Sequence record: ON782582.1
Reading direction: 5' to 3' (one strand)
DNA: 64,000 bases
Source of the DNA: Escherichia phage ECP52
Part shown: positions 54,818-59,003 of the stretch, in pieces
Layout: every line of letters begins with the position of its first letter
How positions within the stretch are numbered: position 1 is the first letter of the stretch
Position numbers and translations under genes: made by a program
Notes under the pieces: generated by a model
Seen by the model: the letters and a program-made list of their open reading frames with translations, nothing else
Databases searched by the model: none
Told to the model about the DNA's origin: nothing

Positions 54818-54825
54818 TATAAATA
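54818..54825 (+). promoter_or_regulatory. Late promoter (TATAAATA) upstream of alt
   Basis: Exact TATAAATA 24 bp upstream of the alt ATG. Confidence 0.6.
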
Positions 54826-54848
54826 GAATAAACACTAGAGAGGATAAC

Positions 54849-56942
54849 ATGGAACTTATTACAGAATTATTTGACGAAGATACTACTCTTCCGATTACAA
54901 ACTTAAATCCAAAGAAGAAAATACCACAAATTTTTTCAGTTCATGTTGATGATGCAATTGAACAACCAGGCTTTCGTTTATGTACCTATACATCTGGAGG
55001 TGATACTAATCGTGATTTAAAGATGGGCGATAAAATGATGCATATTGTTCCTTTTACATTAACTGCTAAAGGTTCAATTGCTAAATTAAAAGGTCTTGGT
55101 CCAAGCCCGATTAATTATATCAATTCAGTTTTTACTGTTGCAATGCAAACAATGCGTCAATATAAAATTGATGCCTGCATGCTTCGTATTCTTAAGTCTA
55201 AAACCGCCGGTCAAGCTCGACAAATTCAACTTATTGCTGATAGACTCATCCGCAGTCGTTCAGGTGGCAGATACGTCCTTCTTAAGGAACTCTGGGATTA
55301 CGATAAAAAGTATGCATATATTCTTATACATCGCAAAAATGTATCACTAGAAGACATTCCAGGAGTTCCGGAAATTAGTACAGAGCTCTTTACTAAAGTT
55401 GAATCGAAGGTCGGTGATGTTTATATCAATAAAGATACTGGAGCTCAAGTAACTAAAAATGAAGCAATTGCAGCATCTATTGCACAAGAAAATGATAAAC
55501 GTTCTGACCAAGCTGTAATCGTTAAAGTTAAAATTTCCCGTAGAGCAATTGCACAAAGTCAGTCATTGGAATCTTCTAGATTTGAAAGTGAATTATTCCA
55601 GAAGTATGAATCTACAGCAGCCAATTTTAATAAACCAGCTACTGCACCTTTAATTCCCGAAGCAGAAGAAATGAAAATTGGAATTAATTCATTAGCTTCT
55701 AAAACAAAGGTAGCAAAAATTATTGCTGAAGGAACGGCAGATGAACTTCACTATGATTATAAATTCTTTCCAATGAGTCAAGTCGGTGAAGTTTCAGAAA
55801 AAATTAAAGAAGTAATTTTTAATGCAATTAAAAATGAACCAACTACTTCAATAAAATGTTTAGAGAAATACGCAGCAGCTGTAAATCAATTCTTTGAAGA
55901 TTATAAAGATAAATGGCTTGCTAATCATAATAAAAATCGTAAAGGACAACCAGATGAAGTCTGGGAAGAAATAACTAAAAATTCCTGGAACGCAGCAAAA
56001 ACTAAATTCCTCAAACGAATGATTTACAGTTTTTCTGGAATTGGTGCTGGTCCAATGATTGATATTACTATTGCACGCGATGGTTCTAAATATACTCCAT
56101 CACAAAAGCGTGGCATTAGAGAATATTGCGGTTCAGGATATACTGACATCAATAATCTTCTTTTAGGTCGTTACAATCCAGAACGATACGATGTAATGAG
56201 TGAAAAAGAAATTGAATCTGCTATAAATAACTTAGATTCAGCTTTTGAAAATGGTGACCGTATACCAGAAGGCATTACAGTTTATCGTGCTCAAAGTATG
56301 ACTGCTCCTATATATGAAGCGTTAGTTAAAAATAAAGTGTTCTACTTCAGAAATTTTGTATCTACTTCTTTAACTCCTATCATTTTTGGACGTTTTGGAA
56401 TCACACATGCTGGTATTGGTCTTTTAGAACCAGAAGCTCGCAATGAATTAACAGTTGATAAAAATGAAGAAGGAATAACTATTAATCCAAACGAAATAAG
56501 AGCGTATAAAGAAAATCCTGAATATGTTAAAGTTCAAATAGGATGGGCAATTGATGGAGCTCATAAAGTTAATGTTGTATATCCAGGAAGTCTCGGAATA
56601 GCAACAGAAGCTGAAGTTATTCTACCACGCGGATTGATGGTCAAGGTTAATAAAATAACTGATGCTTCTAATAATGACGGAACAACATCTAATAATACAA
56701 AACTCATTCAAGCTGAAGTTATGACCACAGAAGAGCTCACCGAATCGGTAATCTATGACGGAGACCATTTAATGGAAACTGGTGAATTGGTTGCAATGAC
56801 AGGTGATATTGAAATAGAAGACAGAGTTGACTTTGCATCATTTGTTTCATCAAATATTAAACAGAAAGTAGAATCATCTCTTGGAATTATTGCGTCTTGC
56901 ATAGATATTACAAACATGCCTTACAAGTTCGTTCAAGGATAA
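54849..56942 (+). CDS. alt: Alt NAD-protein ADP-ribosyltransferase (virion-packaged), 697 aa
   Basis: N-terminus MELITELFDEDTTLPITNLNPKKKIPQIF matches T4 Alt as I recall it; C-terminal R (VYRAQ), STS (FVSTSL) and ExE (TEAEV) transferase motifs. Confidence 0.88.
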   Translation: MELITELFDEDTTLPITNLNPKKKIPQIFSVHVDDAIEQPGFRLCTYTSGGDTNRDLKMGDKMMHIVPFTLTAKGSIAKLKGLGPSPINYINSVFTVAMQTMRQYKIDACMLRILKSKTAGQARQIQLIADRLIRSRSGGRYVLLKELWDYDKKYAYILIHRKNVSLEDIPGVPEISTELFTKVESKVGDVYINKDTGAQVTKNEAIAASIAQENDKRSDQAVIVKVKISRRAIAQSQSLESSRFESELFQKYESTAANFNKPATAPLIPEAEEMKIGINSLASKTKVAKIIAEGTADELHYDYKFFPMSQVGEVSEKIKEVIFNAIKNEPTTSIKCLEKYAAAVNQFFEDYKDKWLANHNKNRKGQPDEVWEEITKNSWNAAKTKFLKRMIYSFSGIGAGPMIDITIARDGSKYTPSQKRGIREYCGSGYTDINNLLLGRYNPERYDVMSEKEIESAINNLDSAFENGDRIPEGITVYRAQSMTAPIYEALVKNKVFYFRNFVSTSLTPIIFGRFGITHAGIGLLEPEARNELTVDKNEEGITINPNEIRAYKENPEYVKVQIGWAIDGAHKVNVVYPGSLGIATEAEVILPRGLMVKVNKITDASNNDGTTSNNTKLIQAEVMTTEELTESVIYDGDHLMETGELVAMTGDIEIEDRVDFASFVSSNIKQKVESSLGIIASCIDITNMPYKFVQG

Positions 56943-56945
56943 ATC

Positions 56946-59003
56946 ATGGAACTTATTACAGAATTATTTGACGGCGCTTCGGCGCCGGTTGTTAACTTAA
57001 ATCCTAAGCATAAAATACCTCAAATTTTTGCTATTCAAGCAGGTGAAGAAAGCGTGCTTCCTGGATTTAGATTTTGTACATACACCTCTGGCGGTGATAC
57101 GAATAAAAACGTTAAGCCAGGCGACAAAATGATGCATATCGTAATGATAGGTGTTAATGAGAAACTATCATTAGTTAAGCTTAAAAACTTGGGTGGAAAT
57201 CCAATTGGCGTCATTAATGCTGTTTTTGATACTGCTCTTCAAACAATGAAGCAGTATAAAATTGATGCATGCCTATTCCGCGTACTAAAAAGTAAAACAA
57301 ATGGCGCAGCTCGTCAAATGCAAGTTATTGCTGACCGTTTAGTACGTACTAAAGGAGCAGGTCGATATGTTCTTTTAAAGGAAATCTGGGATTATGATAA
57401 AAAGTACGCATATATTATGGTTTACCGTAAAAATGCCAATTTAGAAGACATTCCAGGTGTACCTCCTATTTCAACCGAGTTATTCACAAAAGTTGAATCA
57501 AAGGTTGGTGATGTTTATGTAGACGTTAAAACAGGTAATGCTGTTCCTAAAGCTGTTGCTGTTGCTGCTTCTATTGCTTTAGAAAATGATAAGCGCACGG
57601 ATCAAGCTGTTATTCAGAAAACTAAAATTAGTCGTCGATTAGCAGCACAAGCTCAATATTCTACTGTTGATGCTTCACTTCAGGGTGATAGCTTCGCTGC
57701 TAAGAAATATCAAGAGTTTGAATCTAAAGTTCCGGTATATAAAGCAGAAGGACCAATGAACTCTGGCGTTATTCAGGTTGGTTCAAACTTTAGCAAAGGA
57801 GCTATCGGCGGTATGAGAAGTGCTTCTCGTTTTAAATCTAGTGATTATGAACTCGAAAGCTTCCGAAATCATATTGCATTGGCCCATGCACGTTTACGCG
57901 ATCCATCTATCAAGCTGCAGAGCGATATAACATATCAAGGTTCTCAAGAATATTTAAAGAATAAAGAATTCTTTGATTATAAAACTGATAAAATTTTAAG
58001 CGATCTTGCTGACATTAATATTTCTAATAGCTTTGATGTTATTAAGAAAATTATCAATGATTTAGTTAAAGGTTCTAAAGCTACGCCAGATGAAAAGACA
58101 GCTATTATTCAATTTGTAATGAATGGAATTTATAAATTGATTGATGAATCTGCTGCTCAGGCATATGAATATGCAAGCACTGAAGTAACTCCAAAAGGAT
58201 TAACTCAGGCTGAATCTGATGTAATTGAAGATTATTGTGCAGATTCATATGTTGAAATGAACTCATTCCTTTTAGGTAAACCTGATTCTACACGTGAAGA
58301 ATATATGGAACGTGCTATTAAGCACATTGAGACGTTGGATTCTGCATTTGCTAAAGGTTCAGTTCTTCCTCCGGGAACTACACTTTACCGTGGCCAAGAA
58401 GTTACTTTTAAAACTTTACGTCATAATATAGAAAATAAAATGTTCTATTTCAAGAACTTTGTATCTACTTCACTCAAGCCAAATATCTTCGGTGAATATG
58501 GTAAAAATTATATGGCCTTAGATGATTCCGGAGCAGTATTTTCTGGTGAAGGAGAAGGTTCAGTTGATGCTGAAGATTTAATGCATATGGGTAGTCATTC
58601 TACATATGCGAATGAAGACGCTGAAACTAATGTAGGTATGGTAATTAAAGGAGCTGAACGAGTTAAAGTTATCGTTCCGGGTCATTTATCAGGATTTCCA
58701 TCAGAAGCTGAAGTTATTCTACCACGTGGAATTTTACTGAAGATTAATAAAGTAAGTACGTACATGATGAAAGAAACTGCTTATAATAAGTATTTAATCG
58801 AAGGTACAATCGTTCCTCCTTCTGAACAATTAGAAGAATCAGTATATGATGGCGACCATCTGATGGAAACTGGTGAAGTTCGTCCAATGGCTGGATTTAA
58901 TCAATTCCTTGTAGAAGAATCAAAAGAAGAGGAAAACGAAGTTTCTCAAATCTTAGCTTCTTTGGTTAACATCAACGGAATGTCTAAAAAGTTCAAAATG
59001 TAG
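56946..59003 (+). CDS. Second Alt-like ADP-ribosyltransferase paralog, 685 aa
   Basis: Shares the N-terminus MELITELFD...LNPKHKIPQIF and the catalytic R (LYRGQ), STS (FVSTSL) and ExE (SEAEV) motifs with Alt; central region divergent. Confidence 0.8.
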   Translation: MELITELFDGASAPVVNLNPKHKIPQIFAIQAGEESVLPGFRFCTYTSGGDTNKNVKPGDKMMHIVMIGVNEKLSLVKLKNLGGNPIGVINAVFDTALQTMKQYKIDACLFRVLKSKTNGAARQMQVIADRLVRTKGAGRYVLLKEIWDYDKKYAYIMVYRKNANLEDIPGVPPISTELFTKVESKVGDVYVDVKTGNAVPKAVAVAASIALENDKRTDQAVIQKTKISRRLAAQAQYSTVDASLQGDSFAAKKYQEFESKVPVYKAEGPMNSGVIQVGSNFSKGAIGGMRSASRFKSSDYELESFRNHIALAHARLRDPSIKLQSDITYQGSQEYLKNKEFFDYKTDKILSDLADINISNSFDVIKKIINDLVKGSKATPDEKTAIIQFVMNGIYKLIDESAAQAYEYASTEVTPKGLTQAESDVIEDYCADSYVEMNSFLLGKPDSTREEYMERAIKHIETLDSAFAKGSVLPPGTTLYRGQEVTFKTLRHNIENKMFYFKNFVSTSLKPNIFGEYGKNYMALDDSGAVFSGEGEGSVDAEDLMHMGSHSTYANEDAETNVGMVIKGAERVKVIVPGHLSGFPSEAEVILPRGILLKINKVSTYMMKETAYNKYLIEGTIVPPSEQLEESVYDGDHLMETGEVRPMAGFNQFLVEESKEEENEVSQILASLVNINGMSKKFKM

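Follow-up and report, generated by a model that had tools for sequence, protein, structure and literature searches.

A 64,000-nucleotide (nt) stretch of Escherichia phage ECP52 DNA (ON782582.1), referred to here as the window, carries two tandem genes for Alt-like ADP-ribosyltransferases (ARTs) in the gene order 30 (ligase), alt.1, alt, second alt, alt.-3 and 54/48/29. An open reading frame (ORF) scan found both genes intact: ORF1, the alt gene with a T2-type ('type A') effector cassette, at 54849–56942 (697 amino acids, aa), and ORF2, a second Alt paralog with a 'type C' cassette, at 56946–59003 (685 aa). Both lie on the plus strand, as do alt.-3 and the regulatory features described below unless stated otherwise, and they are separated by only 3 bp ('atc', 56943–56945). 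Coordinates, lengths and gap agree exactly with an original prediction made for this DNA. The evidence presented below indicates that ORF2, which T4 has largely lost, most likely encodes a second packaged and injected arginine ADP-ribosyltransferase alongside the Alt protein encoded by ORF1.

The two proteins align over their full length by BLASTP with 42% identity (E = 1e-160), and this full-length identity places their paralogy far beyond chance. The identity is unevenly distributed along the chain, being 67% in the N-domain (aa 1–238), 14% in the helical centre (aa 239–420), 31% in the ART domain (aa 421–628) and 36% in the C-terminal tail (aa 629–697). The blocks MELITELFD, LNPK.KIPQIF and CTYTSGGDTN are found in ORF1 and ORF2 alike; the description of the two N-termini as near-identical holds for the first nine residues and these short blocks, but not for the N-domain as a whole. 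The divergence of the central regions stands as originally claimed, with identities of 14–20% across aa ~239–420. In ORF1, an N-terminal propeptide (aa 1–6) that ends in ITE-6 precedes the remainder of the N-domain (to aa 238), the helical centre (aa 239–420) and the ART domain (aa ~421–628), and the C-terminal propeptide (aa 633–697) follows LTE-632 (56736–56744). ORF2 has the same layout, with ITE-6, an N-domain to aa ~238 followed by the helical centre, an ART domain at aa ~421–626 (58206–58823), LEE-631 (58830–58838) and an acidic C-terminal propeptide (aa 632–685).

Both ORFs belong to the R-S-E class of ARTs, as had been proposed. The Pfam family PF03496 (ADPrib_exo_Tox) matched ORF1 with 129.9 bits (E = 1e-37) and ORF2 with 72.2 bits (E = 5e-20), against a curated cut-off of 23.4 bits, and PHROG 802 ('Alt-like RNA polymerase ADP-ribosyltransferase') takes in both proteins; no NCBIfam model matched either of them. 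The catalytic motifs occur in the expected order in each protein. In ORF1 they are R480 (VYRAQ, 56286–56288), S505-T-S507 (56361–56369) and E587-A-E589 (56607–56615), and in ORF2 they are R482 (LYRGQ, 58389–58391), S507-T-S509 (58464–58472) and E587-A-E589 (58704–58712). In careful alignment of the family, the R, STS and ExE residues were invariant in 19 of 19 members, so that ORF2 has lost none of its catalytic residues. An ExE motif is typical of arginine-specific ARTs. ORF1 and ORF2 are thus predicted to be Alt-family mono-ADP-ribosyltransferases of the R-S-E clade with ExE.

Comparison with solved structures is consistent with this assignment. A phmmer search of ORF2 against PDB sequences gave no match, and solved ARTs were reached only with the family profile of the ART domain, whose arginine motif aligned with the YRG of a C3-like enzyme and whose ExE block aligned both with QYELLLPRN in that same enzyme and with the NEYEV stretch of the binary toxin BECa. 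The STS assignment is made from motif order and invariance, the motif lying outside the solved-structure alignments shown. We found no solved Alt structure; in the structure model, the ART fold expected of the R-S-E clade was present, and the best structural match was Vis, an arginine-specific ART. The Alt proteins share the ART fold and the R / STS / (E/Q)xE active site with Vis, C3, iota Ia, CDTa, VIP2 and Certhrax (PF03496), yet the sequence identity to C3-like enzymes, binary toxins and Vis is only about 20%. They further differ from C3-like toxins in having an additional N-domain of ~240 aa, a helical centre of ~180 aa and cleavable propeptides, and in being delivered by the phage head, whereas C3-like and binary toxins are secreted. 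Between STS and ExE the Alt proteins carry an insertion, which we take to be about 45 aa long on an assumed C3 spacing; it is acidic and differs between ORF1 and ORF2. For T4 Alt, a mutation reported as E577A abolishes ADP-ribosylation (PMC11404850). Counted in the RefSeq protein, the ExE of T4 Alt is E574-M-E576, and the cleavage site LTE-619 (PMC5694885) agrees with the same numbering; the published E577 is therefore probably the second Glu of ExE under an off-by-one name, equivalent to E589 of ORF2.

Substitution rates were examined along with the motifs. The ratio of nonsynonymous to synonymous substitution rates (dN/dS) of ORF2 against its orthologs in T2, RB51 and Sfk20 was 0.030–0.049 over the whole length, and that of ORF1 against its orthologs was 0.061–0.077. 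ORF2 is under strong purifying selection and is at least as constrained as ORF1. These values bear on the idea that ORF2 is a dead paralog, kept as a structural part of the head core or decaying as in T4. T4 shows that the slot can decay, and some ORF2-like database clusters are shorter (415–624 aa), as this idea would have it. However, R482, S507/S509 and E587/E589 are intact and invariant, dN/dS is 0.03–0.05 throughout, and the ORF is full length in T2, RB51, Sfk20 and the window. We therefore rejected a pseudogene or dead enzyme as the identity of ORF2 and regard a dead paralog as very improbable.

Processing motifs at both ends of the proteins point to packaging. In T4, the prohead protease gp21 cuts Alt after ITE-6 and LTE-619, as determined by mass spectrometry (PMC5694885), and about 40 copies of Alt reside in the prohead core (PMC9958956). 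Cleavage motifs are found at the T4 Alt positions in ORF1 (ITE-6 and LTE-632) and in ORF2 (ITE-6 and LEE-631), here by motif match only. The C-terminal motif in both ORFs directly precedes an S-x-x-YDGDHLMETGE block, the Glu of both gp21 sites is invariant in the 19-member family alignment, and the segment after the C-terminal site is acidic (isoelectric point 4.2–4.6) and modelled as disordered. Trimming at both sites would yield mature proteins of 70.1 kDa (ORF1) and 69.1 kDa (ORF2). The proposal that the shared N-terminal leader is a processing or targeting signal gains support from the retention of ITE-6 in both proteins, and a matching site is present at the C-terminus too. ORF2 would on these grounds be packaged like T4 Alt. 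The T4 internal proteins IPI, IPII and IPIII offer a parallel, as they are made late, enter the prohead core, are trimmed by gp21 at an N-terminal (L/I)xE and are injected with the DNA (PMC9958956, PMC5694885). They carry a capsid-targeting sequence and are small, with about 360 copies per head compared to about 40 for Alt, whereas the Alt proteins are large enzymes that are processed at the C-terminus as well. A study of injected anti-restriction proteins (PMC12373910) does not mention Alt.

The same motifs bear on the suggestion that ORF2 is an active ART that stays out of the head and acts late in the producing cell, or on RNA or DNA, or RNAylates proteins like ModB. This suggestion would accord with the absence of virion evidence for ORF2 from the literature searched and with the T4 enzymes ModA and ModB, which are not packaged and of which ModB RNAylates proteins (PMC5512222, 10.1101/2021.06.04.446905). 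ORF2, however, keeps the whole Alt N-domain (67% identity) and both gp21 motifs at the T4 positions, and it lies in the same predicted late unit as ORF1. A non-protein substrate is further disfavoured by ExE and by Vis as the best structural match, which point to a protein arginine acceptor. We consider an unpackaged enzyme improbable.

T4 Alt is a capsid-packaged and injected Arg-specific mono-ADP-ribosyltransferase that modifies Arg265 of the RNA polymerase alpha subunit. In T4, alt (682 aa) is followed by two small ORFs, alt.-1 and alt.-2, to which the T4 record gives no description other than an old duplication of the first portion of alt. The slot of T4 alt is taken by ORF1, whose full-length identity to T4 Alt is 72%, compared to 44% for ORF2. 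The T4 alt.-1 translation (MELITELFDGASAPVV...) follows the N-terminus of ORF2 and not that of ORF1, with one substitution in its first ~54 residues. PHROGs 23015 and 15247, which represent the T4 small ORFs, matched ORF2 at aa 1–56 and 62–117 (E = 2e-40 and 3e-38) and matched ORF1 far more weakly (E = 1e-21 and 2e-19). By BLASTN, T4 keeps nt 1–348 of ORF2 at 96% identity and its last 20 nt; the remnant alignment, which spans the end of alt and ORF2 nt 1–348, is 95.9% identical over 367 nt. T4 is without ~1.69 kb between window positions 57294 and 58983, with a 9-nt overlap at the junction (T4 L001, 7034–7454). The T4 alt.-1/alt.-2 pair (NP_049810, NP_049809) is, on this comparison, what is left of a full-length gene still present in most relatives, reduced to two small ORFs by deletion, and ORF2 is its intact form. 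The question of whether the second copy corresponds to an annotated alt.-x gene is thereby answered in the affirmative, the intact gene being named alt.-2 in RB51 and 'alt.-1' in T2.

ORF1 itself is not simply T4 Alt. The two share the locus between alt.1 and alt.-3/gene 54, the upstream hairpin with the octamer TATAAATA, the domain order, the R / STS / ExE residues and the ITE-6 and LTE sites. Compared to T4 alt (L001, 7455–9503; NP_049811), the N-domain and C-terminal tail of ORF1 are 97–98% identical at the nucleotide level, but the centre is 53% and the ART domain 68% identical, with synonymous divergence (dS) above 1.2. At the amino acid level, ORF1 is 34% identical to T4 Alt in the centre and 61% in the ART domain, and the corresponding values for ORF2 are 11% and 31%. 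The pattern indicates an internal cassette replacement between ORF1 and T4 Alt. Equating ORF1 with T4 Alt was thus rejected in part, its effector portion (centre and ART domain) being a different allele. Since the effector parts of ORF1 and ORF2 both diverge from T4 Alt, the targets of T4 Alt are not simply transferable to either protein.

A mosaic organization of the locus emerged from seven sequences, including the window, T4 and the Dhakavirus phages IME341 (L006, 1913–6124) and Bp7 (L007, 3995–8134), both of which have the same two-slot locus. The N-domains cluster by genus, with 65–68% identity within a genome and 41–46% between genera, and the effector parts cluster by type across genera. 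Type A comprises ORF1 and Dhakavirus slot 1 (68% aa identity in the centre and 93–95% in the ART domain), type B comprises T4 Alt and Bp7 slot 2 (62% and 77%), and type C comprises ORF2 and IME341 slot 2 (43% and 49%). Within type A, the ART regions of ORF1 and IME341 are 89% identical in nucleotide sequence with a dS of 0.55; between their N-domains, identity is 46% at the amino acid level and dS is saturated. The same two-slot arrangement at the same syntenic position is found in Bp7 (alt/alt'), JS98, IME341, Ac42 and 44RR, and the slot contents vary, slot 2 being of the ORF2 type in IME341 and of the T4-Alt type in Bp7. Among slot 1 effector alleles, a T2-type centre was present in 320 records and a T4-type centre in 176, and a T4-type slot 1 is combined with a full ORF2 in, for example, G4507, KNP5 and PYps35T. 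Yersinia phage PST (L005, 2794–4854) carries a single chimeric alt that is ORF1-like over aa 1–102 and ORF2-like thereafter; it looks like what unequal recombination of the tandem copies would leave behind after the loss of one gene length.

From these comparisons the locus appears to behave as two slots that draw on three or more old effector types, and recombination would use the conserved arms as its substrates. We tentatively extend this to a model, which we rate at rather less than an even chance, in which an exchangeable two-slot cassette locus recombines across genera, the genus-specific N-terminal head-packaging domain and the C-terminal propeptide form the constant arms, and ORF2 is a separate injected ART with possibly different targets. 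In this model the target of ORF2 could possibly be a host defence or stress protein. We found no paper that states a two-slot cassette model; a T4-centred literature would have missed the ORF2 type because T4 deleted the gene.

Whether the second gene adds a function or only dosage is addressed by the same data. If ORF2 were a redundant back-up of Alt, it would be packaged and active on the same targets, such as the RNA polymerase alpha subunit, and would serve dosage or robustness only. The domain order, catalytic motifs and processing sites are equal in ORF1 and ORF2, and the single-copy phages T4 and PST are viable, both of which fit a back-up role. The helical centres, however, are only 14% and the ART domains 31% identical, the acidic STS–ExE insertion is different, and the types are each conserved across genera in their own right, under purifying selection, which would be unexpected for simple redundancy. 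A back-up role therefore appears unlikely, and it is followed, progressively less likely, by an unpackaged or non-protein-targeting enzyme and by a dead paralog.

The arrangement of regulatory signals suggests that both genes are expressed late. A terminator-like hairpin (54791–54816; UUCG loop, then a U-run) lies downstream of alt.1, directly before TATAAATA (54818–54825), a match to the T4 late-promoter (gp55) −10 consensus that is predicted to act as a late promoter 23 nt before the ORF1 ATG. The hairpin folds as RNA at −14.8 kcal/mol (z = −4.2; 0 of 200 shuffled sequences folded as well) and is identical in T4 and RB51; it was absent from the output of a simple terminator scan. Five of six T4-like genomes keep a terminator upstream of alt (Nolan 2006, PMC1524935). 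The arrangement of TATAAATA after the hairpin and upstream of alt is common to the window, T4 and RB51, and expression of T4 alt is late (PMC9697503), in line with the late promoter originally placed before the first gene. A Shine-Dalgarno-like GAGAGGA (54838–54844) can be read before ORF1, and a Shine-Dalgarno-like AAGGA (56935–56939) for ORF2 lies within the last codons of ORF1, whose TAA stop (56940–56942) ends 3 bp before the ORF2 ATG. This junction suggests co-transcription and, possibly, translational coupling. At the other end, a bidirectional hairpin terminator (59359–59380) between alt.-3 and the convergent gene 54 was matched by the terminator scan on both strands and folds at −17.9 kcal/mol (z = −4.8), so that terminator hairpins flank the unit from ORF1 to alt.-3. 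Because AAGGA lies inside ORF1, the junction is tight and a terminator follows alt.-3, co-transcription from the late promoter would be the simplest reading.

Taken together, we consider it probable that ORF1 and ORF2 are two late-made, head-packaged, gp21-trimmed and injected arginine ADP-ribosyltransferases with different target sets. The homology, the intact catalytic and processing motifs, the synteny, the purifying selection and the deletion in T4 are observed here; enzymatic activity, packaging, co-transcription and distinct targets are what we infer. Under this proposal, a joint late transcript of the two genes would start at the conserved TATAAATA promoter, and both proteins would enter the prohead core via their conserved N-terminal part. 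The gp21 protease would then trim them after ITE-6 and L(T/E)E-631/632 to give mature enzymes of about 69–70 kDa, which would be injected with the DNA and would ADP-ribosylate host proteins in an NAD+-dependent manner before any phage gene is expressed. ORF1 would represent the T4 Alt slot with a T2-type cassette and ORF2 a third, older effector type that was lost in T4. Different target sets are predicted from the highly divergent helical centre and the ART insertions.

Several observations weigh against this proposal. In the literature searched, we found no virion proteomics of an ORF2-type protein and no functional, cleavage or activity study of ORF2. The structure model was built on a shallow alignment of 19 sequences and has a mean predicted local distance difference test score (pLDDT) of 75. 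The octamer TATAAATA is not enriched in the window (8 occurrences compared to 9.05 expected); statistical support for it as a promoter was accordingly rejected, and what speaks for it is where it lies (between genes, after the hairpin and 23 nt ahead of the ATG) and its conservation with T4 and RB51. A second copy of TATAAATA lies inside ORF1 (56222–56229, codons A-I-N-N), 724 nt upstream of ORF2. This copy is kept in RB51, T2 and Sfk20 and absent from the T4-type allele, and it may be an internal late promoter for ORF2 or a mere by-product of the coding sequence. Finally, T4, with its deletion, and PST, with its single chimeric gene, are viable with one copy, so that ORF2 is dispensable under at least some conditions.

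The genes around the pair are those of T4-like phages, arranged exactly as in T4, T2 and RB51. A 487-aa DNA ligase and a 61-aa ORF lie upstream, and a 96-aa ORF lies downstream, followed by proteins of 321, 364 and 590 aa on the opposite strand; by Pfam, the 61-aa and 96-aa neighbours belong to the T4 alt.1 and alt.-3 families. The alt.1 ORF (54607–54792, 61 aa) matched PF24647 'Phage blade protein' along its entire length (E = 7e-28), and there is a 4-nt overlap between its start and the ligase stop. The alt.-3 gene (59064–59354, 96 aa; DUF5498, PF17602, E = 3e-62) is the last gene on the strand before the terminator, and its position is shared by T4, T2, RB51 and both Dhakavirus genomes in the comparison (IME341 and Bp7). 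Between the ORF2 stop and alt.-3 there is a sigma-70-like candidate promoter, (G)TTTACA-17-TATAGT with an extended TG (59004–59032), which is identified by consensus match only and resembles a T4 early promoter. Read-through from the late promoter probably extends to alt.-3, which may also be expressed early from the candidate promoter. A C-terminally extended Alt.-3 lets T4 mutants escape the CmdTAC defence system (PMC11618068).

The gene pair is widespread. A megablast search with window positions 54600–59400 matched 540 phage records, 368 of which were covered over at least 80% of the query; the matches listed were all T4-like, and the best of them, Escherichia phage vB_EcoM_11B_SA_NWU, was 99.2% identical over the full length. 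The records examined individually are assigned to Tequatrovirus, and the window is best explained as a Tequatrovirus (T2/RB51-like) genome segment. The central segment of ORF2 was found in 401 records at an identity of at least 90%, and about 140 of the 540 matching records are without the ORF2 centre. T2 carries the same pair of 697 and 685 aa, its second gene being noted as 'alt.-1' (AYD82791), and the 685-aa forms of T2 and RB51 (ACP31114, named alt.-2) are 98% identical to ORF2 at the amino acid level. Database labels for the pair include alt_1/alt_2, 'Alt-like RNA polymerase ADP-ribosyltransferase (x2)' and, for the second gene, 'hypothetical protein'. Dhakavirus, 44RR, Ac42 and Phi1 have tandem pairs as well. 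In metagenomes, the ORF2-type protein clusters P0006, P0008 and P0010 (624, 528 and 415 aa) occur at 98% identity, and P0010 is present on 14 contigs, including one of 166 kb; these shorter forms may reflect truncation of the allele, a different choice of start or a frameshift.

The Alt pair is thus found in existing annotations, and its duplication is in the literature. Nolan et al. 2006 (PMC1524935) described T4 alt.-1 and alt.-2 as paralogous duplications of alt and reported that 44RR has a duplicate of full length, Jin et al. 2014 (PMC4177764) reported Alt duplication in Ac42, JS98 and Bp7, and a 2026 paper (PMC13600099) noted a pair of Alt-like paralogs sharing 43% identity in a Tequatrovirus. 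The possibility raised at the outset that both copies are standard, characterised genes holds insofar as they are standard annotated genes of T2-like phages, but characterisation extends only to the first, in its T4 version. As a genome feature the pair is ordinary, being annotated in T2 and in hundreds of Tequatrovirus records, with duplications in print since 2006. Knowledge of injected ADP-ribosylation, however, comes almost entirely from T4, which is atypical in both Alt slots, its second enzyme being gone and its first carrying a different cassette. It is therefore probable that the majority of therapeutic and environmental T-even phages inject two ADP-ribosyltransferases whose targets have never been mapped.

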